DNA from: Nostoc sp.
Lineage (GTDB): Bacteria > Cyanobacteriota > Cyanobacteriia > Cyanobacteriales > Nostocaceae
Length of the DNA: 64,000 nucleotides
Reading direction: 5' to 3'
Assembly (NCBI GenBank): GCA_036918135.1
Contig: JBALDB010000067.1
Coordinates: forward strand, 160,001 to 224,000
This document shows, piece after piece, positions 2 to 64,000 of the stretch. How positions within the stretch are numbered: the stretch's first letter is position 1; every line of letters begins with the position of its first letter. The notes under the pieces are model-generated. The model did not search any database, had not been told where the DNA came from, and was given only the letters and a program-made list of their open reading frames with translations. Both the position numbers and the translations under genes were made by a program.

Positions 2-1813
2 GAATCAGAGCAATTAACCTATCGAGAGTTGAATAACCGAGCAAATCAACTAGCACACTACCTGCAAGAACTGGGAGTAAAACCAGAGGTATTAGTGGGG
101 ATTTGTGTGGAGCGCTCTCTAGAGATGGCGATCGGGCTATTAGCTATTCTCAAAGCAGGTGGGGCATATATACCGCTAGATCCAATGTACCCACCAGAAC
201 GGTTAACTTTCATGCTAGAGAATGCCAATATCTTCGTCTTATTGACTCACAAATGCCTAGCGGATAAGTTATCAGAGTATAAAGGCTATGTAATTTGTTT
301 GGACACAGATTCGGAAGCCATAGCCCAACAAAGCCAAGAAAATCAAGTCAGTGGTGTCACACCAGACAATTTAATCTATGCGATCTACACATCTGGGTCA
401 ACAGGAAAACCTAAAGGGGCAGGAGTCTACCAACGAAGCTTTACCAATCTGCTGAATTGGTTTGTAACAGAATTTAATCTGACCAGCAGCGATCGCGTTT
501 TACTCATATCTTCTTTAAGTTTCGATTTGACGCAAAAGAATATTTACGCCCCTCTACTCGTGGGAGGTGAGTTGCATCTTTTGTCATCCGGATGCTACGA
601 CGCAGCACAAATCGTTGAGTCGGTCTGTGACAAGCAAATAACATGGCTCAACTGCACTCCGAGCGCCTTTTATCCATTGATAGATCGAGGCGATCGAAGT
701 TTGTCTATGAAGAAGACGCTGAGGTATGTATTTTTGGGTGGTGAACCTATTTCGATATCTAGGCTAAAGCTATGGCTCGATCGTGTTCCCTGCAAAACAC
801 AAATTGTAAACACTTACGGCCCAACCGAGTGTACAGACATTTGCGCGGCTTATCGGGTAACTCAACCAGAACAATTGTTAGAAAAAGTAGTACCGATTGG
901 GAAGCCGATTCATAATGCCAAAGTATACGTGTTAGATGGAAATCTCAAGCCTTTACCGATGGGTATGGTAGGTGAACTCTATGTTGGTGGTGAAGGAGTC
1001 GGACGAGGCTATATCAATAATTTAGATCTGACTTTAGCTAAGTTTGTTTGCAATCCTTTCAGCCTCAAACCAGGCGCATGGCTATACAAAAGCGGGGATT
1101 TGGCTCGTTATTTAAGTGATGGTAATATCGAGTTTCTCGGTCGGATTGATAACCAGGTGAAGATTCGCGGTTTTCGGATCGAACTTGAAGAAATTGAAGT
1201 AATCATTAGTCAACACCCAGCAGTCAAGGCGAGTGTGGTTGTAGTTAGTGAGGATGAATCAGGTTTTAAGCGTTTGGTAGCGTATCAAGTCCTTCACCCA
1301 GAACAATCACTGACAGTTAGTGAGTTGCGCTGCTTCTTACAGTCTAAGTTGCCGAACTACATGATACCAAATGCCTTGGTAATACTAGAGGTACTGCCAC
1401 TAACCCCCAACGGCAAGATTGATAGGCGATCGCTACCTGCACCAGAAACTCTTGACTTAGAGTTAGAAGTTGCTTATGTGATGCCACAAACCCAGATGGA
1501 ACGAACCATCGCTACTGTTTGGCAAGATGTCTTACATGTGGAAAAGGTGGGCGTAAATGACAATTTCTTTGAAATCGGTGGTCATTCATTATTAATGGTT
1601 CAAGTCAATAGCAAATTACAAGAAGTTTTGCAAAGAGATTTATCAGTTGTAGAAATGTTTCAGAATCCAACTGTAAATTCCCTAGCACAATATTTAAATC
1701 AAAAACAACAACTTTCTTTTACAGGAACACGCGATCGCGCCAATAAGCAAATTGAGGCCATCAATCGCCAAAAGCAATTATTGAGCAAACAAAATAAAAA
1801 GAATTATGAATAA
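2..1813 (+). CDS. NRPS, 5'-truncated (A-T plus C-terminal docking helix)
   Basis: The frame is open from base 2 (ESEQLTYRELNNRANQLA, A1 motif). Motifs: YTSGSTGKPKG, NTYGPTE, YKSGDL and carrier FFEIGGHSLL. The stop overlaps the next ATG. By-eye code DLKNFGTDIK; substrate not assigned. Confidence 0.95.
   Translation, partial: ESEQLTYRELNNRANQLAHYLQELGVKPEVLVGICVERSLEMAIGLLAILKAGGAYIPLDPMYPPERLTFMLENANIFVLLTHKCLADKLSEYKGYVICLDTDSEAIAQQSQENQVSGVTPDNLIYAIYTSGSTGKPKGAGVYQRSFTNLLNWFVTEFNLTSSDRVLLISSLSFDLTQKNIYAPLLVGGELHLLSSGCYDAAQIVESVCDKQITWLNCTPSAFYPLIDRGDRSLSMKKTLRYVFLGGEPISISRLKLWLDRVPCKTQIVNTYGPTECTDICAAYRVTQPEQLLEKVVPIGKPIHNAKVYVLDGNLKPLPMGMVGELYVGGEGVGRGYINNLDLTLAKFVCNPFSLKPGAWLYKSGDLARYLSDGNIEFLGRIDNQVKIRGFRIELEEIEVIISQHPAVKASVVVVSEDESGFKRLVAYQVLHPEQSLTVSELRCFLQSKLPNYMIPNALVILEVLPLTPNGKIDRRSLPAPETLDLELEVAYVMPQTQMERTIATVWQDVLHVEKVGVNDNFFEIGGHSLLMVQVNSKLQEVLQRDLSVVEMFQNPTVNSLAQYLNQKQQLSFTGTRDRANKQIEAINRQKQLLSKQNKKNYE
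489..496. repeat. HIP1 octamer GCGATCGC (representative copy; many throughout)
   Basis: Further copies at e.g. 1426, 1731, 2580 and 19873. HIP1 is a hallmark of cyanobacterial DNA. Confidence 0.9.
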
Positions 1814-4800
1814 CGTTACAAATTCTCATCTTTTAGAAGGTATTGCTGTTATTGGAATGGCTGGGCGCTTTCCTGATGCTAAGAATGTTTTTAGTTTTTG
1901 GCAGAATTTATCTAATGGAGTTGAGTCAATTTCGGCGTTTACAGATGAAGAATTAATCGCCTCTGGAGTTTCACCAGAACTACTCAACAATCCTAATTAT
2001 TTAAAAGTTGGAGCTATATTAGAAAATATCGATTTCTTCGATGCTACATTCTTTAGTTTTAATCCCAAAGAAGCAGAAATTACCGACCCGCAACATCGTT
2101 TGTTTTTAGAATGTGCATGGGAAGCACTAGAAAATGCTGGTTATGCTTCCCAAAGCTGTGAAAGTAGAATTGGTGTTTATGCTGGCGCTAGTTTAAATAA
2201 TTATCAATCATTTAATTTAAACCGCGACCAAATTGGGTCGGCGAATACTTTCCAAAAAATGATTGGTAATGATAAAGATTTCCTTGCTACTCGTGTTTCC
2301 TATAAATTAAATCTTACAGGCCCAAGTCTGACGGTACAAACTGCTTGTTCTACCTCCTTGGTGGCAACTTCTTTAGCTTGTCAAAGCTTATTGAATTATC
2401 AGTGTGACATGGCTTTGGCTGGGGGAGTATCTGTTCGTATTCCTCAAAAAACAGGGTATTTACATCAAGAAGGGGGAATTTTATCACCTGACGGTCACTG
2501 TCGCGCCTTTGATGCCAAAGCAAGAGGAACAATTATTGGTAATGGTGCCGGAGTAGTGGTTTTAAAGCGGTTAGCTGAGGCGATCGCCGATGGTGACAAT
2601 ATATATGCTGTAATCAAAGGTAGTGCTGTAAATAATGATGGCTCTGGTAAAGTAGGTTACACAGCACCTAGTGTGAACGGACAAGCTCAAGTGATTGCAG
2701 AGGCACTTGCTCTAGCAGATGTGGAACCCGAAACGATTAACTATATAGAAACTCACGGTTCGGGAACTGTCTTAGGCGATCCGATTGAAATTTCTGCTTT
2801 AACCAACGTTTTTCGTGAAAGTACTCATAAAAAAGGATTTTGTGCAATTGGTTCAGTGAAAACGAATATCGGTCATTTGGATGCAGCAGCAGGAGTTACA
2901 AGTTTAATTAAAACCGTTTTGGCTCTCAAACATCAACAAATTCCCCCCAGCTTAAATTTTGAAGAACCAAATCCAGAAATTGATTTTGCCAATAGTCCTT
3001 TTTACGTCAACACCAAGCTGAGAGAATGGCAAACTACTGATACTCCTCGGCGTGCAGGTGTGAGTTCTTTGGGTATAGGTGGGACTAATGCTCACGTCAT
3101 TTTAGAAGAAGCCCCAACCCTGCCAGAATCTAGTCCTTCTCGTCCTTGGCAGTTATTGGTACTTTCAGCCAAAACAGACTCAGCATTAAAAAGCGCTACT
3201 GTCAATCTGGCAGATTATCTCAAACAGCATCCCGATTTAAACCTTGCAGATATTGCTTATACGTTGCAGTGTGGACGACAAGTTTTTGAGCATCGCCAGA
3301 CAGTTGTCTGTCAAGATATTGTAGATGCGATCGCCGCACTTGCAGATCCAAAGCGCTTACTTAACAATGTTCAACAAACTGAAGAACGTCCCCTAGCCTT
3401 TATGTTTCCAGGGCTTGGTACTCAATATGTCAACATGACTGTTGAACTTTACCAAGTTGAACCGACATTTCGCCAAAAAATTGACTATTGTTGTGAATTT
3501 CTCAAACCGCTTCTTGGTCAAGATTTGCGAGATGTCCTCTATCCCAGTAGAAACAGTGAAAATCACACTCAGCAAAAAAGCACTCTGGGCACTGGGTTAG
3601 ATTTGCGAAAAATGTTAGGTCGTGGCGTTGAACAAGCAGATATAGCCACTGAAAAACTCAATCAAACCGCTCTAACTCAGCCAGCTATTTTTGTGATTGA
3701 GTACGCCTTGGCGCAGTTGTGGATGTCATGGGGAATTCGTCCTACGGCAATGATTGGCTACAGCATCGGTGAATACGTTGCGGCTACCTTGGCAGGAGTG
3801 TTGTCTGTTGAAGATGCTTTAACTCTTGTCGCTAAAAGAGCGCAAATGATTCAGGAATTACCAAGTGGCGCAATGTTGGCTGTCCCCCTTTCGGAAGAAG
3901 AGGTGCGTCCCTTGTTGAATGAGAATCTTTGTTTGTCAGCAATCAACGGTTCGCAACAGTGCGTAATTGCTGGCGTTATAGAGGCTGTGGATGAATTAGA
4001 AAGCAAGTTGACTCAAAGAGGATTAGCCTGTCGGCGTTTGCAAACTTCCCATGCTTTTCATTCAAACATGATGGATGCGATCGCCCAACCATTCACCAAC
4101 TTAGTAAAAACTCTTAATCTCCAGCCACCCAAAATTCCCTATTTATCTAACGTCACGGGAAACTGGATTACAGCAGCCGAAGCGACAAATCCCACATACT
4201 GGACAAAGCATCTATGTGAACCTGTGCGTTTTGCAGATGGAATTCAACAATTGGAGAAAAAACAAAATCCGATTCTCTTGGAGGTGGGAGCAGGACAAAC
4301 GCTCAGCAGTTTAGCTTTACAGTGTTTGGATAACGGCTTTTCTACAGGTCGAGTCGTACTCCCCTCGCTGAAGCATTCCTACGAGCGACAGCCAGATTTG
4401 GCTTTCTTGCTTAAAACATTAGGTCAGTTGTGGCTCTCAGGAGTGCAGATTGATTGGTCGGGCTTTTATGCTGCCGAGCGCCGTTATCGCCTTCCCTTAC
4501 CAACTTATCCCTTTGAGCGCCAACGTTACTGGATTGAACCGCAAACATTATCTTCACCTCAGCAGTTCCACCCCAGAGTGACAGCATCAGAGCTTTGGAA
4601 GTCTCTGGTAGAAGCTGCTCAGATGCAAGCGATTCAAGGGAGTTTGGAATTTGACGACCAGACTTATCGAGCAAACAAACAATGCTTAGATAGTTTATGT
4701 ACTGCTTACATGAGCTTTGCTCTGAAGCGTTTAGGTGCATTTAGCGATTCAGCCAAAAAGTATTCTATTGAGGAATTATTCGAGCAATCTTCTATTATTC

Positions 4801-7655
4801 CTAAATATCGTGAATTGTTGTCTAGGTGGTTGGAAGTACTAGTAGAGCAAGGTCAGTTACAGCAAGAGCAGGGCCTATTTACCAACTTTTTACCATCGTC
4901 AACAGAGGATATCAATACTCTTTTAGAAGAAGTCAGAGTCAGATGGGCAGATACACCTCAAAATATTAACTTGATCCAAATCTTTGGTGAAAATCTGGTA
5001 GCTGTGCTGACTGGTGAAAAAGAACCATTGGAGTTACACGTTGCCACATTAGTCAACCAAGGAGAAATTTCTCGACAAAATTTGCCCTCTGAAGTTTACT
5101 TAAGAGGCATTATGCGGGCAATGCTGCAAAAGCTGACAACAACTTTACCAGCAGACGCGAACCTGAGAATTTTAGAAATCGGCGGTGGAACTGGGATTGC
5201 TACAGAGGAATTACTACCTGTGCTATCATCCCCGCACGCAAACTATACTTTTACCGATGTCGGTGGTTTTTTCGTCAAAGAAGCCAAAAATAAGTTTAGT
5301 GTGTATCCTTTTGTGGAATATGGCTTACTAGACATCGAGCGATCGCCACAACAGCAGGGTTACAATAGCCACAGCTTTGATGTGGTGGTAGCTGTAAATG
5401 TATTGCACATAGCCCGCAACATCGAACAAACCCTAGAGCATGTTCGTTCTTTATTAGCTCCTGGAGGCTTCTTACTGCTGTGGGAAATTACTCAACCTAG
5501 ACCAGAGTCGGACATGATTGATGCTCTGATCATGAATCCCATAGAAGATGAAACAGGCAGCCGCAACATGGCTAATCCATTTTTATCAAAGGAGCAGTGG
5601 CAAGAAGCCCTGAAATCCTGTGGTTTTGTTGAGGTGGCAGCTTTCTCTGAATTTGAAGCCTTTGGCGAACATGTGTTTATTGCTCAGGTTGCTGACTCAA
5701 CAGGATTATCAGCACCAGCAGCATTTACAACTTTAGTCAATGGCAAGGTTGACAAGCTGCCTCAAGTCTTGTCAGATAAAAAGCCGGACATTGCTGACTG
5801 GTTCTATATCCCATCCTGGAAACGCTCAATGCCACCTCAGCCTTTTAAATTGACTCTGCCAAGATGCTGGTTAGTATTTGTCGATGAGTGCGGCTTGGGT
5901 GCCCAAGTAGTGAAGCGACTCCAACTTGAAAACCAGAATGTTATTACCGTCAAGAAGGGAGAGCAATTTAGCAATCAGAGCAAATCTTCTCCAGATGTAG
6001 GTGGTCAACAATACACAATCAATCCTCGACAACAGGATGACTACCATACCCTACTCAAAAAACTTCGCACCCTAGATTTAACCCCCTCAACAATTGTTTA
6101 TTTATGGAGTGTTACACCGCCCGATCGCTTAGAATTAGAACTTGAATCCGTAGACTCCCAAGACTTAGACTTTTACAGTTTGCTATTTCTAGCCCAGGCA
6201 ATTGGAGAACAAAATCTCACAGATTCCCTGGAAATTGCAATTGTGTCAAATAATATGCAGGAATTAACAGGCCAAGAGACGCTGTCTCCGGAAAAAGCAC
6301 TAGTTCTCGGGCCTTGTAAAATTATTCCGTTGGAGTATCCAAATATCAACTGTTGTAGTATTGATGTCGTTCTTCCTGAAGTTCAAAGTTGGCAAGGGGA
6401 TAAACTCGTAGACCAACTACTGAACGAGCTACATACTCAACCATCTGAGCAGATTATCGCTTACCGGGGCAATCATCGCTGGGTACAGACCTTTGAGCCA
6501 ATTCGACTGGATGAAACTGTTGAAGGACAAACACGCTTGAGGGAAGGAGGAGTCTATCTAATTACGGGTGGATTAGGAGGCGTTGGTCTAGTGTTGGCAG
6601 AGTTTTTAGCACAGACCGTCAAAGCAAAACTGATACTGACTGGACGTTCGGCTTTTCCCGATCGCCACGAGTGGTCACAATGGCTATCCACTCACGATGA
6701 ATCCGACAGTATCAGCTGTAAAATCCGAAAATTACAAGCGATCGAGGCGTTGGGTGCAGAGGTATTGTTAGTCAGCGCTGATATTGCCAACCTCGAACAA
6801 ATGTCGGGTGCGATCGCTCAGGCAAATAATCGATTTGGTCAAATTCATGGCGTAATTCATACCGCAGTAGTTCCAGGGGGAGGTCTGATTCAACTCAAAA
6901 CAAAAGCAGCAGCAGCAAATGCTCTTGCACCGAAAGTCAAGGGAACACGAATCCTCGATATTCTCTTTAAGAATGCCAAACTGGATTTCTTTGTACTCTG
7001 TTCATCAAGTAGTACATTTCATCCTGTAGCGGGTATGGTAGACTACATTGCTGAAAATGCCTTTCTTGATGCGTTCGCTCACTACAGTGTCTCTAAATAC
7101 GGCAAGTTTACCAGAGCCATTGACTGGGATAGATGGAGCAATTTAGGAACCGCAGTAGCTGTTGAAGCACGGTATAAAGCTCTAATACAGAAAGAGATTG
7201 CGCCAGGAATGATACCAGAAGAAGGCATTGAGGTATTTAAACGGATTCTCTTGAATAGCACAGTGCCTCAAATAGTTGTATCAACGCAGGATTTACAGAT
7301 TGAGATTGAGCAGAAATTTTCCTTAGAAGTCTTAAAGAAAACTAACATATCCAAATCGGCATACCAAAGACCCCAACTCAGAAATGCTTATGTTGCTCCT
7401 ACCAGTGAGAGTGAGTCCAAGATTGCTGATATCTATCAAGAGTTATTAGGAATTGAGCAGGTAGGCATTCATGACAACTTCTTTGAGTTAGGAGGAGACT
7501 CCTTAATCGGAACCGTACTAATTTCTCAGCTTCGGAAAAACTTCCAGGTAGAACTATCTGTTCGTTGCCTCTTTGAAGCACCCTCTGTATTTGAATTGGC
7601 TTTAGTTATTGAAGAAACCATCATTGAAGAGTTAGAAAAATTATCTGAAGTTTAA
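1806..7655 (+). CDS. Type I cis-AT PKS module KS-AT-MT-KR-ACP
   Basis: KS TACSTS/HGSGT/NIGHL; AT GYSIG and HAFH; MT LEIGGGTG and VNVLH; KR GGLGGVG and DYIAEN; ACP FFELGGDSL; acidic C-terminal docking tail. Confidence 0.95.
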   Translation: MNNVTNSHLLEGIAVIGMAGRFPDAKNVFSFWQNLSNGVESISAFTDEELIASGVSPELLNNPNYLKVGAILENIDFFDATFFSFNPKEAEITDPQHRLFLECAWEALENAGYASQSCESRIGVYAGASLNNYQSFNLNRDQIGSANTFQKMIGNDKDFLATRVSYKLNLTGPSLTVQTACSTSLVATSLACQSLLNYQCDMALAGGVSVRIPQKTGYLHQEGGILSPDGHCRAFDAKARGTIIGNGAGVVVLKRLAEAIADGDNIYAVIKGSAVNNDGSGKVGYTAPSVNGQAQVIAEALALADVEPETINYIETHGSGTVLGDPIEISALTNVFRESTHKKGFCAIGSVKTNIGHLDAAAGVTSLIKTVLALKHQQIPPSLNFEEPNPEIDFANSPFYVNTKLREWQTTDTPRRAGVSSLGIGGTNAHVILEEAPTLPESSPSRPWQLLVLSAKTDSALKSATVNLADYLKQHPDLNLADIAYTLQCGRQVFEHRQTVVCQDIVDAIAALADPKRLLNNVQQTEERPLAFMFPGLGTQYVNMTVELYQVEPTFRQKIDYCCEFLKPLLGQDLRDVLYPSRNSENHTQQKSTLGTGLDLRKMLGRGVEQADIATEKLNQTALTQPAIFVIEYALAQLWMSWGIRPTAMIGYSIGEYVAATLAGVLSVEDALTLVAKRAQMIQELPSGAMLAVPLSEEEVRPLLNENLCLSAINGSQQCVIAGVIEAVDELESKLTQRGLACRRLQTSHAFHSNMMDAIAQPFTNLVKTLNLQPPKIPYLSNVTGNWITAAEATNPTYWTKHLCEPVRFADGIQQLEKKQNPILLEVGAGQTLSSLALQCLDNGFSTGRVVLPSLKHSYERQPDLAFLLKTLGQLWLSGVQIDWSGFYAAERRYRLPLPTYPFERQRYWIEPQTLSSPQQFHPRVTASELWKSLVEAAQMQAIQGSLEFDDQTYRANKQCLDSLCTAYMSFALKRLGAFSDSAKKYSIEELFEQSSIIPKYRELLSRWLEVLVEQGQLQQEQGLFTNFLPSSTEDINTLLEEVRVRWADTPQNINLIQIFGENLVAVLTGEKEPLELHVATLVNQGEISRQNLPSEVYLRGIMRAMLQKLTTTLPADANLRILEIGGGTGIATEELLPVLSSPHANYTFTDVGGFFVKEAKNKFSVYPFVEYGLLDIERSPQQQGYNSHSFDVVVAVNVLHIARNIEQTLEHVRSLLAPGGFLLLWEITQPRPESDMIDALIMNPIEDETGSRNMANPFLSKEQWQEALKSCGFVEVAAFSEFEAFGEHVFIAQVADSTGLSAPAAFTTLVNGKVDKLPQVLSDKKPDIADWFYIPSWKRSMPPQPFKLTLPRCWLVFVDECGLGAQVVKRLQLENQNVITVKKGEQFSNQSKSSPDVGGQQYTINPRQQDDYHTLLKKLRTLDLTPSTIVYLWSVTPPDRLELELESVDSQDLDFYSLLFLAQAIGEQNLTDSLEIAIVSNNMQELTGQETLSPEKALVLGPCKIIPLEYPNINCCSIDVVLPEVQSWQGDKLVDQLLNELHTQPSEQIIAYRGNHRWVQTFEPIRLDETVEGQTRLREGGVYLITGGLGGVGLVLAEFLAQTVKAKLILTGRSAFPDRHEWSQWLSTHDESDSISCKIRKLQAIEALGAEVLLVSADIANLEQMSGAIAQANNRFGQIHGVIHTAVVPGGGLIQLKTKAAAANALAPKVKGTRILDILFKNAKLDFFVLCSSSSTFHPVAGMVDYIAENAFLDAFAHYSVSKYGKFTRAIDWDRWSNLGTAVAVEARYKALIQKEIAPGMIPEEGIEVFKRILLNSTVPQIVVSTQDLQIEIEQKFSLEVLKKTNISKSAYQRPQLRNAYVAPTSESESKIADIYQELLGIEQVGIHDNFFELGGDSLIGTVLISQLRKNFQVELSVRCLFEAPSVFELALVIEETIIEELEKLSEV

Positions 7656-7767: not shown

Positions 7768-8622
7768 ATGAATATTCAAACAGTAGGTGTTGTTGGTGCG
7801 GGGGTCATGGGAATAGGGGTTGCACAAAATCTGGCTCAAACAGGTCATCAAGTCTTTCTAGTAGATATTTTAGAAAATATCTTGGATAAAGCTAAATATG
7901 AAATCAGGAATAATATCCGCTTTCAGAGTTTTTTTAAAAAAAGTAATAACACAGAAACTCCAGATAGTATCCTCAGTAAAATAGAGTTTTCAACAAACTA
8001 TAAAATTTTAGATAATACAGATTTTGTTATAGAAAATGTCACTGAAAAATGGGATATTAAAAGAGAGGTATATCCTTTACTAGATTCTATTTGTTCGCCA
8101 AATTGCGTATTTGCCGCTAACACATCAGCTATTCCCATTACCCGCATTGCTTCAGTCACCAAACGTGCCGATAAAATTGTTGGGATACACTTTATGAATC
8201 CTGTACCAATGAAGCCGATGGTGGAGATGATTCGCGGGTATCATACCTCTGATGCAACAATTGAGACAGCAAAACAAATGTTAGCTCAGATGGGTAAAGA
8301 ATCGATAATTGTTAATGATGCACCAGGTTTTGTTTCTAACCGGGTGTTGATGTTAACTATTAACGAAGCTATTTTTCTATTGCAAGACCAAGTTGCTACA
8401 GCAGAAGATGTGGACAAAATCTTTAAAGGTTGTTTTGGTCACAAAATGGGGCCTTTAGAAACAGCAGATTTAATTGGTCTAGACACAATTTTGTTTTCTA
8501 TTGAAGTCTTGTATGAAAGCTTTAACGATAGCAAGTACAGACCATGCCCTTTACTCAAAAAAATGGTAGATGCAGGGTTGCATGGTAAAAAAACTGGTAA
8601 AGGTTTTTACGTGTATCAATAA
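7768..8622 (+). CDS. 3-hydroxyacyl-CoA dehydrogenase family (FkbK/ZmaG-like glyceryl-ACP dehydrogenase)
   Basis: GVVGAGVMG Rossmann motif, ANTSAIPIT, GIHFMNP, GPLETADLIGLD. Adjacent to an ACP, an acyl-CoA dehydrogenase and FkbH. Confidence 0.9.
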   Translation: MNIQTVGVVGAGVMGIGVAQNLAQTGHQVFLVDILENILDKAKYEIRNNIRFQSFFKKSNNTETPDSILSKIEFSTNYKILDNTDFVIENVTEKWDIKREVYPLLDSICSPNCVFAANTSAIPITRIASVTKRADKIVGIHFMNPVPMKPMVEMIRGYHTSDATIETAKQMLAQMGKESIIVNDAPGFVSNRVLMLTINEAIFLLQDQVATAEDVDKIFKGCFGHKMGPLETADLIGLDTILFSIEVLYESFNDSKYRPCPLLKKMVDAGLHGKKTGKGFYVYQ

Positions 8623-24945: not shown

Positions 24946-25131
24946 GCTATAATTATTACTTTTTTCTGGGAGTCATCTGCCAACAGAAAAATTTAATCCT
25001 GTAAAACTGTTGACAAAATACTCATCATCTGAAATTTTTACAAATGTATATTGACGAATAAATATAGCTAAACAATCGCGATATTCACAGATTGTTCTAG
25101 AATTCTTCAACTCCCTTTGTAAATAAAAGGT

Positions 25132-39365: not shown

Positions 39366-39482
39366 TGTCAGCAAAGCGATCGCTCGAATCTTAATGACCT
39401 GTAGAATCGAATATTTTAGAGTTAAGCAGGCGTCATAATATTCTTACCGCAAAAACAAATTAAAAAAATATTGCAACCCAAT

Positions 39483-55249: not shown

Positions 55250-55364
55250 AGACTTTAAAAAGTAACGTAATTTTATTTTACTCATTATTAAAAACATTAT
55301 TTAAACTATAAATTTGGCAAAAAAATAATTGTAAATATTTACTTATAAATAGGAAAAATTGTTT

Positions 55365-56132
55365 ATGTCTGTAGCAACTAATTCTCTTATATCTTCAGTT
55401 AGCAATCTTCCAAATTATGAACCAATTGCTCGCTTACAGAACGAATTCAAGAATAGAGATGAATTTATAGTAGACGGTGTAATACCTTTTTTAGAGCAAA
55501 TATTATTTCCATATATTTCTAAAGAAGCGCGTATTCTCGACCTTGGTTGTGGTTGTGGACATTTAGTGCAACAGCTTCACCTGAAAGGGTATCAAATGAC
55601 TGGAATTGATGCATCTGAAGGATTATTGCATTATGCTCGAACAAACGCACCTGAGAGTGAATTCATCTTTGGTGATATACGCAACTTTGAGTTGCCACTT
55701 ACCTTCAATGCTATTATTTCAATCGATGTTTTACTTTTCATTCTTAATAATGAAGACTTGACAGCTATCTTCCGAAATGTATATGCAGCACTAGAGAACA
55801 AGGGTCTGTTCGTGTTTTCGATACCATTAATAGAATTGATGCATAAGCAGACTGAAGAGGGTTCTTTCAATCATATCTATGTCAATGATGAATGTGCTTT
55901 TATTGAATTATTTAACTACAATCCGGAAAAAAAGATGTGGAAAATTGAAGTTACCGGATTTGAATTAGTAGAAAAAACTTGGAAGCGTTCAGACACTACT
56001 TGGCTGAGAAAGGATCACTTATTCACAGATGTCCAATCGGCTTTAGAAAATGTGGGCTTCACAGAAATTAGTCATCTTGATGCTGGCGGGCTAGGAGGTA
56101 GCGCTTGCTTTGTTTGTCATAAACATGTCTAG
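55365..56132 (+). CDS. Class I SAM-dependent methyltransferase
   Basis: RILDLGCGCG, TGIDAS, GDIRNF. ATG at 55365 follows an AGGA RBS. Confidence 0.88.
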   Translation: MSVATNSLISSVSNLPNYEPIARLQNEFKNRDEFIVDGVIPFLEQILFPYISKEARILDLGCGCGHLVQQLHLKGYQMTGIDASEGLLHYARTNAPESEFIFGDIRNFELPLTFNAIISIDVLLFILNNEDLTAIFRNVYAALENKGLFVFSIPLIELMHKQTEEGSFNHIYVNDECAFIELFNYNPEKKMWKIEVTGFELVEKTWKRSDTTWLRKDHLFTDVQSALENVGFTEISHLDAGGLGGSACFVCHKHV

Positions 56133-56271: not shown

Positions 56272-59200
56272 ATGGATAAACAACACTCTAATTTATCACC
56301 AGCAAAAAAAGCTCTTTTAGAAAAATGGAAGGGAGGAAAATTTAAAGCTGATACTATTCCCAAACGTCAAATCACTGAGAGTATTCCTTTATCTTTCTCT
56401 CAACAAAGACTATGGTTTATTGACCAACTTTATCATGGAAGTTCTTTTTATAATATTCCTATCGTTTTTCAAATCAAAGGACAGCTTAGTATCACAGCAC
56501 TTGAGCAAAGTCTGAATAAAATTCTTCAGCGTCATGAAGTTTGGCGCACAACTTTTAAACTTGTAAATGGAGAGCCAATACAGGAGATTGTACCCCAATT
56601 AACTTGGGATTTACCCATTATAAATCTTGAGCATTTGTCTGGTAAAGATTGGGAAGGAGAAGTTAAACAACTTGTAGCCAAAGAAGCAACAAAACCGTTT
56701 AATTTAGCTAAAGGACTTTTAGTTAGAGCGATTTTACTTCGCTTAAGTGAAGAAGAACATGTTTTGCTTGTGACCATGCACCACATTATCACTGATGGAT
56801 GGTCTTGCGGTGTGTTCCTGCGCGAGTTGTCAACGCTATACGCTGCTTTCTCGACAAATCAACCTTCCCCCTTACCCGAACTCCCGATTCAGTATGCAGA
56901 TTTTACAATTTGGCAGCGCGATCGCATTCAAGGTAAATTTTTAGCAACCCAATTAAATTATTGGAAACAACAACTCAAAGGTGAACTACCTGTACTACAA
57001 TTACCTACAGACTATCTACGACCTCATGTTACTACTTTTACTGGTGCTAAGCAATACTTTACATTCTCTAAAGCTCTGACTGATGCATTAAGACAATTAA
57101 GCCAGCAAGCAGATGCTACTTTATTTATGAGTTTGCTGGCTGCATTTAATATTTTACTATACCGCTACACAGACCAAGAAGATATCTTAATTGGTTCTCC
57201 AATTGCCAACCGCAACCGCACCGAATTAGAAGGAATGCTGGGATTATTTGTTAATACTTTGGTATTACGTAATAACCTCAGTGGTAATCCTAGTTTTTAC
57301 GAACTTTTACATCGAGTTCGTGAGGTGACTCTCGATGCTTATGCACATCAAGATTTACCTTTCGAGATGCTTGTAGAAGAATTACAACCCGAACGAGACT
57401 TAAGTCGAAATCCACTTTATGAAGTCATGTTTGTCCTGCAAAACAGTCCGGTATCTGTGCAGGAGGTTTCTGGTTTAACCTTGCGTACTTTAGACTTTGA
57501 TAGCGGTACAGCTCAACTAGATATTTTCCTGTCGATGTTTGAATCCCAAGAGGGATTAACAGGATGTTTGGAGTACAATACAAATATTTTTGATTCAACA
57601 ACTATTAGCCAATTTATTTGTCATTTCCAGACTTTATTAGAAAGTATCATTGCTAATCCAGAGCAACACATCTGTGAATTATCACTTTTAACTGCTTTTG
57701 ATAGAGAACAATTATTATTTAAATTTAATCAAACTATTGCAGATTATCAAGATGTACCTTTGCATCAATTATTTGAGCACCAAGTTGAACTAACACCTGA
57801 CTTTTTGGCATTAATTCATCAGTCACAAGAACTAACTTATCGTCAACTTAACCACAGAGCTAATCAACTTGCACATTATTTAGAAAAACAGGGTGTAACA
57901 ACAGAAACCCTGGTTGCTATATGTCTAGAACGTTCTCTAGATATGGTAGTGGGAATTTTAGCTGTCCTCAAAGCTGGCGGAGCCTATATTCCTCTCGATC
58001 CAAGTTATCCAGTTGAGCGTTTAAGTTTTATGCTCTCTGATTCTCAAGCATCGATATTAATTAGCCAACAGGAAATATTAGAAAAACTCTTATTATCTTC
58101 AGCTAAAACTGTTTGCTTGGATATCCATAAAGACAAAATTGCTCAAGAAAGTCAAGAAAATCCGATTAGCAAATCACAAGCTGATAATCTTGCTTATATT
58201 ATCTATACCTCTGGCTCAACTGGAACTCCTAAAGGCGTTCTTGGCACCCATCGCGGTACACTAAACGGCTTACACTGGTTATGGAAAACTTATCCTTTCA
58301 CTCCAGAAGAAGTTTGTTGTCAGAAAACAGCTATTAGTTTTGTAGACTCTGTATGGGAAATTTTTGCTCCTTTACTTCAAGGAATTCCTACAGTAATTAT
58401 CAGCAATCAAACTCTACTAGACCCGCAGCTATTTATCGAAGCTTTGGCACATTATCAAGTTACCCGGATTATACTTGTACCCTCACTACTGCATTTATTT
58501 TTAGATAATTATCATTATTTAACTAAGAAATTATCACAATTAAAACTTTGGATAACTAGCGGGGAAGCACTATCTACTAACTTAGCTAAAACTTTTCGAG
58601 AATTGATGCCATTTGCAAAACTAATTAATCTTTACGGCTCATCGGAAGTTTCTGCCAACACTACTTACTACGATTCCAGTTTATTACAAGACCAAGCCAA
58701 TAGTGTCCCTATCGGTCGTCCTATTGACAATACTCAAATCTATGTCTTAAATCGCCATTTACAACTAACACCTGTAGGAGTTGTTGGAGAACTTTATGTT
58801 GGTGGTGACGGATTGGCAAGGGGTTATTTGCATCGTCCAGAATTGACTCAAGAAAGATTTATTGATAACCCTTTTATTAAAGGAACTAAACTTTACAAAA
58901 CAGGTGATTTAGCACGCTATCTCATAGATGGTAATTTAGAATATTTGGGTCGCCGTGATGAACAAGTAAAAATTCGAGGATTCCGAGTAGAATTAGGTGA
59001 AATTGCAACTGCGATCGCTCAACATCCAGATGTGCAAGAATCTGTTGTGATTGCCAGCAATGATACTCAAGAAAATCAGCGTTTGATTGCCTATGTCGTC
59101 ACAGATAAGCAGGATATAGCTGCACAACTATTGCCAGATTTGCAACAGAAGTTACCTAGTTATATGTTACCATCTGCCTTTGTAGTATTAAATGCGCTCC

Positions 59201-60366
59201 CACTAACACCTAATGGCAAAGTAGATAAACGTTCTCTGACTATAAATCAAGTTATCCGACCCAATACTACGCAATCCTTCGTTGCTCCTCGTAATTTTAC
59301 AGAATTATCATTAGTAAAACTTTGGGAAAAGCTTCTAGATACTAATCCTATCGGGGTAACAGATAACTTCTTCGACTTGGGTGGTCATTCATTTTTAGCT
59401 GTACGCTTAATCGCTCAAATTCATGACAGATTTGAGCATAATCTTACTCTATCTACTCTTTTTGAAAACCCAACAATTGAAAAACTAGCAGCCATCGTTA
59501 GTCAGCCATCACGCTATAGTTCTAATTCTCCTTTAGTAGCAATTAACTCCAATGGTGACAAGATACCTTTCTTCTGTATGCATGGTGCTGGGGGAGGCAT
59601 TAATAACTACTTTATATTGTCTAGGAGACTTGGTGAGGACTATCCATTTTATGCCTTAGAACATAACCCAGAGCAAGACCTACCTGAAATTATTTCAGTC
59701 GAGGAAACTGCAACTCGCTACCTCAAAGAAATTCGTCGAGTACAACCAAATGGCCCTTATCTTTTAGGTGGTCATTGTTACGGTGGTGTAATTGCTTTTG
59801 AAATGGCGCAGCAATTACAAAAGCAAGGTCAAACAGTAGGTTTATTAGTTATTATCGATACCATCCTATCAGAAATACGTATTGAATCTACAAAAGATGA
59901 TGATGCAAAATTCTTACTCAGGATGGCAGAATCGATAAAAACCAACAACAATATAGATTTTTCAATTCCTTTTGAGGAACTTCGAGTTTTATCACTAAAT
60001 GAGCAATTTCATTTAGTAAATCAAAAAGCAAACTTTATCTTTAGTGATACAGAGGTTGAAGATTTTTTTCATTATTACAAACTTTTCAAAGCACATGTTC
60101 AAGCCATGCGAAATTATATTCCCCAAGTTTATTCTCAATCTATAACTCTGTTTCGAGCTAAGGAGGAGATTATTCATGACTTTGACAATCCAGAATGGAG
60201 TACTGATGACCCATTATTAGGCTGGGGTAAATATTATAGTCAACCTATTCAAGTAATTGAAGTTCCTGGCGATCATTTCTCGATATTCGTTGACCCTCAT
60301 ATTCAAGAATTAGCTAAACATCTGAGAAATTGTATCGATAATGCTGTGTGCAAACTAAATAGTTGA
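56272..60366 (+). CDS. Terminal NRPS C-A[beta-Ala]-T-TE (Cys nucleophile)
   Basis: C HHIITDGWS; A4 reads FVDSVWE, code VDWIISLANK (beta-Ala-type); T GGHSFL; TE GHCYG...IIDT...PGDHF. Confidence 0.93.
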   Translation: MDKQHSNLSPAKKALLEKWKGGKFKADTIPKRQITESIPLSFSQQRLWFIDQLYHGSSFYNIPIVFQIKGQLSITALEQSLNKILQRHEVWRTTFKLVNGEPIQEIVPQLTWDLPIINLEHLSGKDWEGEVKQLVAKEATKPFNLAKGLLVRAILLRLSEEEHVLLVTMHHIITDGWSCGVFLRELSTLYAAFSTNQPSPLPELPIQYADFTIWQRDRIQGKFLATQLNYWKQQLKGELPVLQLPTDYLRPHVTTFTGAKQYFTFSKALTDALRQLSQQADATLFMSLLAAFNILLYRYTDQEDILIGSPIANRNRTELEGMLGLFVNTLVLRNNLSGNPSFYELLHRVREVTLDAYAHQDLPFEMLVEELQPERDLSRNPLYEVMFVLQNSPVSVQEVSGLTLRTLDFDSGTAQLDIFLSMFESQEGLTGCLEYNTNIFDSTTISQFICHFQTLLESIIANPEQHICELSLLTAFDREQLLFKFNQTIADYQDVPLHQLFEHQVELTPDFLALIHQSQELTYRQLNHRANQLAHYLEKQGVTTETLVAICLERSLDMVVGILAVLKAGGAYIPLDPSYPVERLSFMLSDSQASILISQQEILEKLLLSSAKTVCLDIHKDKIAQESQENPISKSQADNLAYIIYTSGSTGTPKGVLGTHRGTLNGLHWLWKTYPFTPEEVCCQKTAISFVDSVWEIFAPLLQGIPTVIISNQTLLDPQLFIEALAHYQVTRIILVPSLLHLFLDNYHYLTKKLSQLKLWITSGEALSTNLAKTFRELMPFAKLINLYGSSEVSANTTYYDSSLLQDQANSVPIGRPIDNTQIYVLNRHLQLTPVGVVGELYVGGDGLARGYLHRPELTQERFIDNPFIKGTKLYKTGDLARYLIDGNLEYLGRRDEQVKIRGFRVELGEIATAIAQHPDVQESVVIASNDTQENQRLIAYVVTDKQDIAAQLLPDLQQKLPSYMLPSAFVVLNALPLTPNGKVDKRSLTINQVIRPNTTQSFVAPRNFTELSLVKLWEKLLDTNPIGVTDNFFDLGGHSFLAVRLIAQIHDRFEHNLTLSTLFENPTIEKLAAIVSQPSRYSSNSPLVAINSNGDKIPFFCMHGAGGGINNYFILSRRLGEDYPFYALEHNPEQDLPEIISVEETATRYLKEIRRVQPNGPYLLGGHCYGGVIAFEMAQQLQKQGQTVGLLVIIDTILSEIRIESTKDDDAKFLLRMAESIKTNNNIDFSIPFEELRVLSLNEQFHLVNQKANFIFSDTEVEDFFHYYKLFKAHVQAMRNYIPQVYSQSITLFRAKEEIIHDFDNPEWSTDDPLLGWGKYYSQPIQVIEVPGDHFSIFVDPHIQELAKHLRNCIDNAVCKLNS

Positions 60367-61760
60367 TGGGAGTACAAAAGCTGATGAAATTACCCCCAGG
60401 GCCGAAAACTCCTTCTTGGTTGATAGGTCTGCAATTCGAGATCGATCCTTTTGGCTATATGGACGCTATTTCTAAACGTTATGGTGATATCGTCACTTTA
60501 ATGTTTGGTTCTACACCAATTGTTTATATCAATAATCCCTTAGGAATAAAGGAAATTTTCACAAATACCAAGGAAATTGCTGCTAGGGGTGAGTTGAACC
60601 AAGATTTCGCTTTGATGACAGGAAATCAAGGAGTTTTGCAACTTGATGGCTTAATTCATAAAAATCGGCGTAAGCTGTTAATGCAATCTTTTCACGGAGC
60701 GCGAATGCAAGCTTGTGGGCGGCGTATTTGTGAACTCACAGAAAAGATGATGAATAAACAAGTGATTGGAAAACCTTTTGTTGCCTACCCAACAATTGAA
60801 GATATCACCTTACGAGTGGGTATAGAAGTTGTAATGGGTTTGGATAAAGGTGAGCGCTGTGAGAAAATCAAACAATTATTTGTATATGCGCTCAGAATCG
60901 GACAGTCTCTTAGAGATAAGATTCTGGTGAATATTTTTGGACAACGGAATTTAGGTCAATGGAGTCCAGAGGGGTATCGTCTTCACTTGAGACGAGAACT
61001 TTTTCAATTGCTATCGGCTGAGGTTAAAGAACGGCGATTGCAAGCAGATTTTTCCCGCTCTGATATGCTCTCGGATCTAATTTTTGCTTGTGATGAAACA
61101 GGCGAAACATTAAGTGATGAAGAGGTGCGTGACCTGTTATTATCGCCGATATTTGCGGCTGGTGATGCTTCTGGAACTGCAATTACTTGGGCATTATATT
61201 GGATTCACCGTTTGAAAGATGTTCGCTCGCGCCTGCTATCAGAACTCGATAGCCTTGGTGAAAATCCAGACCCGATGAGTATTGTCGCATTACCTTACCT
61301 AAATGCTGTTTGTAATGAAGCTTTGCGAATTTACCCGACTCAGTTGTTTGCATTTCCCAGGTTGGTAGAATCGACCGTTGAGGTCATGGGTTACCAGTTG
61401 AATCCTGGTACAATACTTATTGCAAATATTTATTCCACACACCAACGCGAAGATTTATACCCTGCTGCAAAAGAATTTAATCCAGAGCGCTTTTTAGAAA
61501 AACAATTTTCTCCCTATGAATTTTTGCCATTTGGCGGCGGTTCTCGTGTGTGTATCGGCGGAACTTTTGCCTTATTTGAAATGAAACTTATATTAGCAAC
61601 TATTCTTTCACGTTATCAATTAGAGCTAGTTAGTAAGCGTCCAGAACGTCCCAAATATGGAGGTCTGATTTGTTACCCAGCTAGCGGCGTCAAGATGCTC
61701 ATGCGTGGTCGGCGTCAACATCAAGAACAGTCGCAGACTTTCGCTGTCGGTTCAGTTTAA
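60366..61760 (+). CDS. Cytochrome P450 (CYP110-like)
   Basis: LPPGP N-terminus, EALR, PERF, FGGGSRVCIG heme motif. The ATG overlaps the upstream TGA (TGATG); alternative start 60384. Confidence 0.94.
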   Translation: MGVQKLMKLPPGPKTPSWLIGLQFEIDPFGYMDAISKRYGDIVTLMFGSTPIVYINNPLGIKEIFTNTKEIAARGELNQDFALMTGNQGVLQLDGLIHKNRRKLLMQSFHGARMQACGRRICELTEKMMNKQVIGKPFVAYPTIEDITLRVGIEVVMGLDKGERCEKIKQLFVYALRIGQSLRDKILVNIFGQRNLGQWSPEGYRLHLRRELFQLLSAEVKERRLQADFSRSDMLSDLIFACDETGETLSDEEVRDLLLSPIFAAGDASGTAITWALYWIHRLKDVRSRLLSELDSLGENPDPMSIVALPYLNAVCNEALRIYPTQLFAFPRLVESTVEVMGYQLNPGTILIANIYSTHQREDLYPAAKEFNPERFLEKQFSPYEFLPFGGGSRVCIGGTFALFEMKLILATILSRYQLELVSKRPERPKYGGLICYPASGVKMLMRGRRQHQEQSQTFAVGSV

Positions 61761-61797
61761 CACCTATCAAAAACTTAATTTTTATAAAAAAATACTA

Positions 61798-63180
61798 ATG
61801 AAACTACCAGATGGCCCAAAAACTTCTCCCCGATCGCTCGCTGATGAATTTAAGACCAATCCCCTTGGATTCATGGATGCTATGGGCGATCGCTATGGTG
61901 ATATTTTCACTATTATGGCTGGTTCTACACCTTTAGTGATAGTCAGCAATCCAGAGGGGATAAAGCAGATTTTTACCAGTGCTAAAGAGATTACAGCTTC
62001 TGGTAAGTTGAACCAAGGCGGTGCGCCACTAGTGGGAAACAACGGGTTACTGATGCTTGACGGCTTGCGCCACAAACATCGCCGTCAGTTGTTGATGCCT
62101 CCTTTGCACGGAACTCGCATCAAAGTATATGGGCAACGCATCTGTCAAGTAACAGATCGAGTCATCAACGATTTGGTGCTAGGGGAAACTTTTATTGCTT
62201 ACTCTACTGTACAAAAAATTACCCTAGAGGTAATACTGCAAGCTTTGTTTGGTTTGTACGCAGGAGAGCGTTACGAACAATTTAAGCAAATACTTTCCAA
62301 GTTACTCATTTTTGCCCGGTCTCCCTGGCTGGGGTTATCTCTGGCTTATCCCTTTCTCCGAAAAGATTTAGGGCGTTGGACTCCTTGGGGATATTGGCTT
62401 CATCTCCAACAACAATTTGACAAACTACTCTATGCTGAAATTAGCGAACGCCGAGCAAAAGTAGATCCAACTCGCACCGATGTCCTCTCTGAACTACTCT
62501 TTGCTCGTGATGAAACAGGTCAACCAATGACCAACGAGGATATACGCGATTTGTTTCCCTCATTACTATTAGGTGGTCAAGATGCCTCAGCCACCGCCAT
62601 AACTTGGTCATTGTACTGGGTTCACCATTCAAAAGATGTCCGCGAACGATTGCTGGCAGAACTTGATACTCTTGGTGAATCTCCAGATCCGATGGCTATT
62701 GCTGCGCTACCCTACCTCAGTGCTGTTTGTAATGAAGCACTGCGAATTTACCCAACTCAAGTAGTCACTTTTCCCAGATTAATAGAATCACCAATTGAAG
62801 TAATGGGCTATGAATTGAGTCCAGGTACAGTCATTAGAGGCTGTATTTATCTGACACATCAGCGTCAGGACTTATACCCACAACCACAGGAATTCAAACC
62901 AGAACGGTTTCTGGAGCGACAATACTCTCCCTATGAATTTCTACCATTCGGGGGCGGCGCTCGCCGCTGTCCGGGCGAGGTGTTAGCACTTTTTGAAATG
63001 AAGTTAGTTTTAGCAACAATTCTCTGTCGCTATCAACTAGCACTAGCTGATGAACAAAGAGCAGAAAAACCCAAGGCTATAGGTGTTAACTATCCCCCTG
63101 CGAGTGGCTTAAAAATGGTAATGCTTGGTAAACGCCAGCGCCCAGCAAAGCCACAGCAGTTCGTTGCTAATTCAGCATAA
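61798..63180 (+). CDS. Cytochrome P450 (CYP110-like), paralogue of the upstream P450
   Basis: Start MKLPDGPKT chosen by homology to the neighbour; EALR, PERF, FGGGARRCPG. Confidence 0.94.
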   Translation: MKLPDGPKTSPRSLADEFKTNPLGFMDAMGDRYGDIFTIMAGSTPLVIVSNPEGIKQIFTSAKEITASGKLNQGGAPLVGNNGLLMLDGLRHKHRRQLLMPPLHGTRIKVYGQRICQVTDRVINDLVLGETFIAYSTVQKITLEVILQALFGLYAGERYEQFKQILSKLLIFARSPWLGLSLAYPFLRKDLGRWTPWGYWLHLQQQFDKLLYAEISERRAKVDPTRTDVLSELLFARDETGQPMTNEDIRDLFPSLLLGGQDASATAITWSLYWVHHSKDVRERLLAELDTLGESPDPMAIAALPYLSAVCNEALRIYPTQVVTFPRLIESPIEVMGYELSPGTVIRGCIYLTHQRQDLYPQPQEFKPERFLERQYSPYEFLPFGGGARRCPGEVLALFEMKLVLATILCRYQLALADEQRAEKPKAIGVNYPPASGLKMVMLGKRQRPAKPQQFVANSA

Positions 63181-63243: not shown

Positions 63244-64000
63244 ATGATTGAAAAAATCGAGCCATTAGGAACAGGAACAGGAAAAATAGTATACAGTACT
63301 AACAATTGTGAAGATATTTTACACTTTTCTAAAGCGGAAATTCTGGATTTATTCAAGTTATCTGGAGTTATTCTTTTTCGAGGTTTTGGAGTAACTCCCA
63401 TACAGATGAAAGCTTTTTCTGAAAAATTCAGTCATAGCTACCTTAAAGATCCCACGAAAGGAAGTCTTGACTCGGTTGATTTTGTTAACTCAGTAGATAC
63501 CGGAATGGGTGCTAGTGCTGCTCATACAGAACATGGTTCTAGTCCTTATCAACCCGATGTTATTTGGTTTTGCTGTACAACCCCTGCACAAGAAGGAGGT
63601 GAAACTCTATTTTGGGATGGTATCCAACTTTGGAAGGAAATGAGCAAACATACCAAACAGTTATTTATTGATAAAAAACTCAAGTTTACTTTTGAAGATG
63701 TGCCATTAGATGTATTAAATCAATGGGTTGATTGTGGTGAAACCATTGATGATTGCAAGCAAGTCTTGGATCGATTTGAGGATTTTAATTATCAAATAAA
63801 TGAAGATTCAAGCTTTTCTTTAAAATATCTTTGCTCAGCTGTCGTAAAAACCAAGTATGGAAATCAAGATGCATTTGCCAACTTCGCTTGGACAGCTCAC
63901 GCTCGCGGATGGGAGATTTTTGAAGATGGTTCAAAGTTTTCTGAGGAAGTCGTTGATGAACTTGAGAAACTTTTCGACAAGTTGACGCAAGAAATCTCTT
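63244..64000 (+). CDS. TauD/TfdA-family Fe(II)/2-oxoglutarate dioxygenase, 3'-truncated (absent from the ORF track)
   Basis: Manual translation: MIEKIEPLG...GVILFRGF...AAHTEHG...PDVIWFCCTTPAQEGGETLFWDG. The frame stays open to the window end. Confidence 0.88.
   Translation, partial: MIEKIEPLGTGTGKIVYSTNNCEDILHFSKAEILDLFKLSGVILFRGFGVTPIQMKAFSEKFSHSYLKDPTKGSLDSVDFVNSVDTGMGASAAHTEHGSSPYQPDVIWFCCTTPAQEGGETLFWDGIQLWKEMSKHTKQLFIDKKLKFTFEDVPLDVLNQWVDCGETIDDCKQVLDRFEDFNYQINEDSSFSLKYLCSAVVKTKYGNQDAFANFAWTAHARGWEIFEDGSKFSEEVVDELEKLFDKLTQEIS

Follow-up and report, generated by a model that had tools for sequence, protein, structure and literature searches.

The 64,000-nucleotide stretch of Nostoc sp. 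DNA analyzed here (the window; contig JBALDB010000067.1, positions 160,001 to 224,000; G000:C67:160001-224000 in our numbering) carries a hybrid nonribosomal peptide synthetase/polyketide synthase (NRPS/PKS) cluster, which we are inclined, on balance, to read as an iron-repressed lipopeptide-polyketide siderophore pathway whose family-wide ligand would be built at the C-terminus. Its 21 large open reading frames (ORFs), all intact and all on the + strand, form one co-oriented run, and the GC content of the window is close to that of the genome (Table 1). Near-identical proteins bear the label Nostoc. A preliminary description of this DNA had named eleven modules, a TonB siderophore receptor, a Fur box and five oxygenase functions (JmjC, an embedded luciferase-like monooxygenase (LLM), two P450s and TauD). 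Pfam and NCBIfam profiles recovered every one of these elements, including all eleven modules and all five oxygenases. A fatty-acyl ligase (FAAL), 3.6 kb upstream of the window, starts the assembly line; because this first gene reads FAAL-T-C-A-T, the product is predicted to be a lipopeptide. The elongation modules are, in order, A1-T; KS-AT-MT-KR-ACP; C-A-NMT-T-E; C-A-T-C-A-T; KS-AT-KR-ACP-E-like (modules 1-6); and C-A(LLM)-T; three of KS-AT-KR-ACP; C-A-T-TE (modules 7-11). To the elements named earlier, the analysis adds this FAAL starter, a hydroxymalonyl-ACP cassette, PanP, a Cys thioesterase and an altered KR/E/C trio around PKS2.

The adenylation (A) domain A1 has the code DLKNFGTDIK, which may be homoserine-like. 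The codes that follow, DAEDIGSVVK, DVWHMSLVDK, DFWNIGMVHK, DILQMGMIWK and VDWIISLANK, presumably correspond to Lys, Ser, Thr, Gly and beta-Ala; there is no Asp-type code among the A domains of the cluster. The chain would thus be assembled as fatty acyl, X (homoserine-like), 2,3-dihydroxy-2-methyl ketide, N-methyl-D-Lys, Ser and Thr, followed by 2-hydroxy-3-oxo/hydroxy ketide, Gly (alpha-oxidized by the LLM), two hydroxy ketides, a keto ketide and beta-Ala. The module order supports the colinear backbone proposed earlier; its beta-Ala end, previously a linear acid, is now predicted to be a cyclized pyridone. Because all six condensation (C) domains carry HHxxx(D/E)G, none of them is a heterocyclization (Cy) domain. 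Among the window and flank ORFs scanned, we found no match to the chorismate-binding or Orn/Lys N-hydroxylase families and no gene for a known chelator (catechol, salicylate, Orn/Lys hydroxamate, beta-OH-Asp/His or Dmaq), as the preliminary description had noted for catechol, salicylate, Orn/Lys N-hydroxylase and Cy genes. Some relatives do contain known-chelator genes.

Table 1. Genes and sites of the cluster, in window coordinates
Feature	Position	Strand	Remarks
Starter gene FAAL-T-C-A1-T, 3' part	2..1813	+	1798 aa; start G000:C67:156417 = window -3583
PKS1 KS-AT(GYSIG)-C-methyltransferase-KR-ACP	1806..7655	+	domain profiles; MT PDB match CurJ C-MT
FkbK-like 3-hydroxyacyl dehydrogenase, hydroxymalonyl-ACP cassette	7768..8622	+	
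Free-standing ACP, hydroxymalonyl-ACP cassette	8642..8890	+	
FkbI-like acyl-ACP dehydrogenase	8931..10139	+	
JmjC/cupin-8 2OG oxygenase, JMJD5-like, accessory	10180..11046	+	
FkbH glyceryl transferase	11203..12270	+	TIGR01686 271 bits vs cut-off 146.65
NRPS2 C-A(Lys-type)-N-methyltransferase-T-E	12306..18290	+	
NRPS3 C-A(Ser)-T-C-A(Thr)-T	18305..24769	+	
FurA-like site ahead of receptor	25129..25147	.	11.8 bits, 95th-99th background percentile
AMIN-domain TonB-dependent siderophore receptor	25277..27907	+	TIGR01783 427 bits vs cut-off 223.5
16/19 match, E. coli Fur consensus	28188..28206	+	
PKS2 KS-AT(GYSIG, ZmaA-like)-altered KR-ACP-non-canonical E	28877..34906	+	AT PDB match ZmaA 4QBU
NRPS4 C(HHILMEG)-A(Gly, LLM insert ~37026-38063)-T	34929..39365	+	LLM = luciferase-like monooxygenase
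PanP, PLP-dependent aspartate 1-decarboxylase, beta-alanine supply	39471..41123	+	TIGR03799 612.9 bits vs cut-off 606.1
PKS3 KS-AT(GHSIG)-intact KR-ACP	41180..45859	+	
PKS4 KS-AT-intact KR-ACP	45895..50583	+	
PKS5 KS-AT-degenerate KR-ACP	50576..55249	+	KR motif GGLESIE, Lys to Gln
Class I SAM methyltransferase, accessory	55359..56132	+	
NRPS5 C-A(beta-Ala)-T-TE, Cys nucleophile GHCYG	56272..60366	+	Cys1169, Asp1196, His1335
P450a	60363..61760	+	I-helix Thr replaced by Ala
P450b	61795..63180	+	same I-helix Thr to Ala change
TauD-family dioxygenase, accessory	63244..64000	+	ends at window 64113
Sucrase/ferredoxin, MATE exporter, SDR, O-methyltransferase	64167-68702		downstream of window

Comparison with relatives reveals a nearly fixed tail, comprising an aspartate decarboxylase (PanP), a last PKS whose ketoreductase (KR) is dead or missing, a beta-Ala module, a Cys thioesterase (TE) and an atypical P450. 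PanP is seen in 16/17 relatives whose tail is visible. The terminal TE occurs in 72 of 300 sampled genomes of the bacterial family, 18 of which, picked by similarity and assembly length, were read in context. Motif reading of the clusters with the tail covered finds the KR of the last PKS before beta-Ala absent in 4/18 and broken in 14/18, through damage to the NADPH motif, loss of catalytic residues or both; most KRs farther upstream are intact. The degenerate KR of PKS5 is predicted to leave a beta-keto group. The same holds for 34 metagenome loci, which include several duplicates and were collected with a search pattern that favoured Cys: the last PKS is not visible in 7, and in the other 27 its KR is absent (3) or broken (24). 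PanP was found within the fetched stretch in 18/19 clusters and in 73/300 of the sampled family genomes, 69 of which also have the TE, that is, in 69/72 TE-positive versus 4/228 TE-negative genomes. Cys replaces Ser as the TE nucleophile in 18/18 clusters, and Cys, Asp and His are invariant in the TE alignment. Among the best 120 homologues of the terminal module, all at least 75% identical, a Cys nucleophile and a beta-Ala-type code are found together in 116, with 4 unread. Open frames of 1739-3755 aa at G141:C12, G242:C274, G265:C307, G120:C134, G107:C101 and G163:C1 also contain a PanP-like domain (45% identical) that seems to have been fused into megasynthases; in G141, G242 and G107 it is about 10 kb from the Cys TE.

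The elfamycins kirromycin, aurodox and factumycin are EF-Tu antibiotics. They share with this cluster an aspartate decarboxylase, a terminal beta-Ala module behind a beta-keto donor (here by KR motif reading) and cluster P450s (PMC5818483, PMC4979870); the kirromycin proteins concerned are KirD, KirB, KirHI and KirOI. In kirromycin biosynthesis, KirD supplies beta-Ala, a cyclase closes the N-beta-ketoacyl-beta-alanyl thioester to a 3-acyl-4-hydroxypyridin-2-one, and the P450 KirOI desaturates the ring (PMC4979870, PMC5818483). Dieckmann cyclases use a Cys-Asp-His triad, and in-line TEs also perform the reaction (PMC10956176). Dieckmann release is predicted here from this substrate logic and from the Cys-Asp-His precedent, in-line TEs included. 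By this analogy, the TE probably performs the ring closure, which would convert the N-beta-ketoacyl-beta-alanyl thioester to a 3-acyl-4-hydroxy-5,6-dihydropyridin-2-one; it is the invariant tail that points to such a ring in place of the linear beta-Ala acid. The tail would work like an elfamycin tail, yet the cluster fails as a member of that group: it has an in-line Cys TE instead of a stand-alone TrdC/KirHI-type cyclase without TE (only the Cys-Asp-His triad is shared), a PLP-dependent PanP, a cis-AT lipopeptide scaffold and a link to iron uptake.

The ring would then be oxidized by the cluster P450s. A P450 is always present in the family clusters and P450a is invariant; 12/18 clusters have a second P450. 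The I-helix Thr is changed to Ala in 29/30 cluster P450s and is kept in 6/7 other P450s of the genome, the remaining one being unread. We propose that these enzymes introduce a double bond into the ring, hydroxylate its nitrogen or do both, and so produce a cyclic hydroxamate (hydroxypyridone) that would bind Fe(III), possibly assisted by the mid-chain hydroxy and keto groups. A likeness is predicted to tenellin/15-hydroxytenellin and the terramides, in which a P450-made cyclic hydroxamate chelates Fe(III) (PMC8669486, PMC11442908). TenB N-hydroxylates the pyridone, and the resulting fungal ligand binds iron, N-O-methylation abolishing chelation (PMC8669486); TamB N-hydroxylates amides, and P450 amide N-hydroxylation yields iron chelators (PMC11442908). 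The fungal pyridone ring arises from tetramate ring expansion, whereas here it would form directly from beta-Ala, with N-hydroxylation predicted. By analogy with these systems, we see about even chances that N-hydroxylation is the ligand-forming step, for which P450a is the natural candidate. All six single-P450 clusters (G195, G030, G115, G298, G150 and G196) have a short-chain dehydrogenase/reductase (SDR) gene directly behind the P450, positioned as if standing in for P450b.

A TonB receptor lies within or beside 18/18 related clusters, at 43% identity or more in 17 and at 27% in G191; the background in this genome is 12% of random points with a receptor within 45 kb. In several relatives, genes for binding proteins and ABC transporters were also confirmed, and the linkage of a TonB-dependent siderophore receptor and uptake genes to the cluster is that of a siderophore locus. 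Between the receptor and PKS2, no trace of a former binding-protein gene was seen. An AMIN receptor and a binding protein suffice for cyanochelin B uptake (bioRxiv 10.64898/2026.07.30.741596). CcsQ-like acylases, which have been tied to siderophore clusters (bioRxiv 10.64898/2026.07.24.740629), adjoin the cluster in 6/18 relatives; none lies near this cluster, and the genome encodes one unlinked to it (G000:C38:66343-68430), 71% identical to an acylase beside a related cluster. The MATE protein would export the product and the AMIN receptor would retrieve its iron complex, and the CcsQ-like acylase elsewhere in the genome may strip the lipid tail.

The palindrome ATTGAAAATAATTTTCAAT, derived from the receptor promoters of 11 relatives, resembles the FurA consensus and the all2649 site (both taken from PMC4005646). 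Gibbs sampling reached it in 3/6 seeds, with this genome and G101 excluded from training. With 16.4 bits at G000:C67:156025-156043, some 370 bp ahead of the first gene, it exceeds the 99th background percentile (13.0) and places a Fur-type operator in silico at the cluster head; it scores 11.8 bits at window 25129-25147 and no more than 4.7 bits in the spacer that contains the Fur box named earlier. The preliminary description had relied on a 16/19 match to the E. coli Fur consensus; this match is present on the internal promoter as the sole such site in the window (12 in the genome; 6/100 shuffles gave one) and lies inside a 171-bp stretch 81% conserved in G101. Against the cyanobacterial motif, however, it scores poorly (4.7-7.1 bits, below the 90th background percentile); alone, it appears marginal as evidence of iron control, which the FurA-like site at the head supports better. 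Scans of the relatives with the E. coli consensus (60 doublet shuffles) were mostly uninformative, and sigma-70 matches in 24700-28900 show no excess (8 vs 10.7 by chance). From gene content and promoter motifs, the cluster very probably serves iron uptake; the metallophore role and iron control claimed earlier are supported by the receptor beside 18/18 relatives and by the head palindrome. Both the chemistry and the iron binding of the product are inferred from sequence.

Several points weigh against a C-terminal hydroxypyridone siderophore. The relatives are kin, and counts over them are not independent. Two last-module KRs (G191 and L143) retain Lys and Tyr. A TE model built from the alignment (pLDDT 85) is nearest to AB3403 (Z 26.7, rmsd 3.4, 262 aligned), with type I TEs as the top matches and no NcmC-type cyclase among the best 50; the modeled fold appears to be that of an in-line type I TE and not of a stand-alone TrdC/KirHI-type cyclase. 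A Cys nucleophile is not diagnostic of Dieckmann release, since remote GxCYGG thioesterases (about 30% identity) are found both in A-T-TE proteins and behind Lys modules where no PKS is visible. Such distant enzymes, at metagenome loci L145-L189, are also found in FAAL-T-TE proteins. The type I fold and the occurrence of Cys TEs without a beta-keto donor speak for hydrolysis to a linear beta-ketoacyl-beta-Ala acid, the alternative closest to the preliminary description. Its ligands would be mid-chain alpha-hydroxy/keto-amide units, oxygenase-made hydroxyls and the terminal carboxylate, and a Ser/Thr-hydroxymalonyl block present in nine clusters (described below) could build one. We consider such a linear siderophore improbable: it leaves the joint retention of beta-keto group, beta-Ala, Cys TE and P450 in all clusters read unexplained, and 5/19 clusters without the Fkb cassette still keep the tail and the receptor.

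Other points against the hydroxypyridone concern the oxidation of the ring and the genomic setting. Because the P450s have no close characterized homologue (best PDB match, E 1e-29), N-hydroxylation is a guess; with a single P450 in 6/18 clusters, two oxidations cannot always require two enzymes; and by analogy with the fungal ligand (PMC8669486), the ring without N-OH may be a poor ligand. Receptor-barrel matches number 32 in this genome, which also encodes an IucA/IucC siderophore synthetase; the synthetase gene probably marks a schizokinen-type second siderophore pathway (synthetase domain at G000:C7:210742-211452), and a divergent receptor lies about 29 kb from the other hydroxymalonyl cluster of the genome. 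At least nine genes for TonB receptors share an island at G000:C55:48800-96300 with several AraC regulators. The pyridone could instead be only desaturated, following the KirOI precedent for P450 desaturation. The lipopeptide scaffold with N-methyl-D-Lys would then belong to an iron-regulated antibiotic or allelochemical, or to a binder of another metal (Cu, Zn), and the receptor, one of many per genome, would serve recapture or another siderophore; fatuamide shows that cyanobacterial metallophores can prefer copper. This outcome is unlikely in our view, as receptor, binding-protein and ABC genes accompany the cluster across genera, a FurA-like site is present, and relatives add classic iron ligands.

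Much of the oxygenation of the chain can be traced to the PKS extender units. The genes at 7768-12270 include an FkbK/ACP/FkbI/FkbH cassette, and both PKS1 and PKS2 have GYSIG acyltransferases (ATs). The best PDB match of the PKS2 AT is ZmaA (4QBU, E 7e-76), the hydroxymalonyl-specific AT of zwittermicin, an aminopolyol antibiotic. GYSIG ATs occur in 14/14 clusters with the Fkb cassette and, as one divergent case, among the 5 without it; in a quick tree, they (27 rows) form a single clade (SH-aLRT 100). FkbH, two dehydrogenases, an ACP and a ZmaA-like AT together constitute a hydroxymalonyl system of the zwittermicin A type, and the likeness to zwittermicin A, which has the FkbH/K/I/ACP cassette and GYSxG acyltransferases, is confined to this extender system. 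The chain hydroxyls would thus derive largely from hydroxymalonyl-ACP, which corrects the emphasis on oxygenases in the preliminary description. Because neither dehydrogenase is missing and the distribution of GYSIG ATs follows that of the cassette, use of FkbH for a tetronate was rejected. For the PKS1 methyltransferase, the best PDB match is the CurJ C-methyltransferase (E 3e-47); a tertiary alcohol is therefore predicted, and O-methylation by this domain was rejected on the same match. In the close relative G286, a carbamoyltransferase lies between PKS1 and the Fkb cassette (L026:7444-9516). A second hybrid NRPS/PKS cluster in this genome (G000:C7:112000-155500) has its own Fkb cassette, GYSIG ATs, LLM, TauD and a Ser-type TE.

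PKS2 contains a KR without the catalytic Lys, followed by an epimerization (E) domain with altered motifs and, in the next protein, a C domain with HHILMEG. This block of PKS2-type module, E and C domains was observed in the window (28877-36300) and in G101, G286, G195, G280, G030, G115, G150 and G196; its E domain is non-canonical, with HHLAVDFGSW or HHLGTDPGSW. Ser or Thr precedes it in 9/9 cases, 2/9 are without any KR, and the HHILMEG motif was read in 8/9. The block may possibly represent unrecognized chemistry or a second ligand.

All five oxygenases are present, but as a pathway core they hold up only in part, since TauD, JmjC and the LLM are accessory. A TauD orthologue is found in 2/19 clusters, the LLM in 4/19 and a JmjC protein at more than 50% identity in 4/19; the class I SAM methyltransferase is present in 8/19. 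Given this sporadic distribution, TauD, JmjC and LLM were rejected as makers of the family ligand. The cluster TauD and its Asp-linked counterpart in G012 share 25% identity. The LLM, embedded in the Gly A domain, has PuwE as its best PDB match (6KET, E 2e-135) and may yield hydroxyglycine or cleave the chain. Such cleavage would follow MtaG/ZmaL-type logic: collapse of a hydroxyglycine hemiaminal would release an acyl-peptide primary amide and a small polyol-pyridone as the working chelator. The placement of this PuwE-like enzyme and the hydroxymalonyl logic shared with zwittermicin are consistent with such a cut, which could also replace deacylation, no CcsQ-like acylase having been found near the cluster. 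We nevertheless regard it as doubtful, with small odds: in the close relative G150 this Gly module occurs without an LLM, a close LLM orthologue occurs in only 4/300 genomes, and the 71%-identical acylase is encoded on another contig.

The preliminary description had presented a singular pathway; the distribution of the terminal TE instead makes it one member of a widespread family. Beyond the bacterial family, the other genomes of a 400-genome class sample yielded a single TE-positive case, and a profile search of a 300-genome phylum sample yielded 4, all from the same order. Homologues of the terminal module come from Nostoc, Scytonema, Tolypothrix, Fischerella, Calothrix, Mastigocoleus, Gloeocapsopsis and other genera, and named plasmid copies exist. 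None of the 18 relatives has the exact module order of this cluster; the nearest are G101, G286 and G195, and PKS4, whose KR is 91% identical to that of PKS3, is an additional module relative to G286 and G195. Heads vary: some are FAAL, others combine an aryl ligase, a chorismate-binding enzyme and a Cys module; the middles vary freely. The same tail stands with a salicylate-synthase-type gene and a Cys module in G010, and with TauD beside Asp-type modules in G012 and G286. The divergent members L100 (NZ_CP097482.1) and G191 have a halogenase and an aryl-CoA ligase, and in them the receptor stands directly behind the terminal NRPS. The cluster is an intact member of a widespread, apparently uncharacterized family in filamentous cyanobacteria. 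More tentatively, and short of an even chance, the family may be an unrecognized siderophore family whose hydroxypyridone ligand is made by an in-line Cys TE and a Thr-less P450 N-hydroxylase, the tail serving as a portable module on lipid, salicylate-thiazoline or beta-hydroxyaspartate heads.

Compared by published descriptions, the cluster differs from the anachelin, cyanochelin, leptochelin and schizokinen pathways, as stated earlier. Cyanochelins A-C share the FAAL start, the AMIN-type receptor and, with near relatives of this cluster, the CcsQ-like acylase, and cyanochelin C contains D-Lys and beta-Ala, as does the backbone predicted here. In contrast to the cyanochelins, this cluster has no Asp module with paired TauD, has five PKS modules and is released differently; some relatives are hybrids carrying cyanochelin-like Asp/TauD. 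Anachelin, leptochelin, lusichelin, fatuamide and the all2641-2649 cluster of PCC 7120 share the hybrid NRPS-PKS architecture, hydroxylated amino-acid/ketide linkers and a receptor; unlike the first four, this cluster is without salicylate, Cy and Dmaq genes (PMC4247773, PMC11240249, PMC12210259, PMC11877528). The accessible portions of the sources mention no pyridone or aspartate decarboxylase for any of these five. Identity with the PCC 7120 cluster, which Calteau groups with an Agrobacterium C58 cluster, was set aside on Calteau's description, not by sequence.

In Calteau 2014, 62 clusters were flagged for their proximity to siderophore transport genes, including the unknown-product hybrid families CF-26, CF-36 and CF-38; CF-26 spans Nostoc and related genera, with 3/6 flagged. 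Fischerella sp. PCC 9605, which we find to carry the terminal module, has three hybrid clusters, all flagged in that survey. Related clusters may therefore have been noted in silico before as candidate siderophore clusters, without chemistry, and the term undescribed now applies to the product, unmatched in the literature surveyed, better than to the clusters. No cyanobacterial pyridone product or matching cluster was found in this literature, which lies mostly outside subscription journals; the accessible portions of PMC9324945, on the N. punctiforme pks clusters, and of PMC12184294 and bioRxiv 10.64898/2026.09.06.749771 contain no link to the cluster family. One count lists 24 cyanobacterial siderophore structures, among the schizokinen, synechobactins, anachelins, cyanochelins, leptochelins and lusichelins (bioRxiv 10.64898/2026.07.24.740629). 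A FAAL-NRPS/PKS siderophore is a known kind, and the ligand predicted here is absent from the cyanobacterial siderophores listed in the literature surveyed.

Nitrogen-fixing Nostocales have a high demand for iron, and the family, present in 72/300 sampled genomes, could be one of the chief ways in which cyanobacteria of soils, lichens and crusts acquire it. Rules based on chelator genes would miss such clusters. The C-terminal hydroxypyridone is a precise, testable prediction and, if true, would add to the bacterial NRPS metallophores a new class of chelator, for which PanP, a KR-dead PKS, beta-Ala-TE(Cys) and a P450 would together provide a genome-mining marker. Candidate new enzymology includes an in-line TE that closes six-membered rings by Dieckmann condensation, a bacterial P450 that N-hydroxylates amides and the non-canonical KR/E/C block.

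Around the cluster, two near-identical tandem DUF3102 genes lie just upstream (G000:C67:153291-155832), an MbtH gene is at C67:150180-150392 and a type II TE gene is at C67:240272-240967. The density of HIP1 (GCGATCGC) is 4.8 per 10 kb in the window versus 8.0 in the genome.

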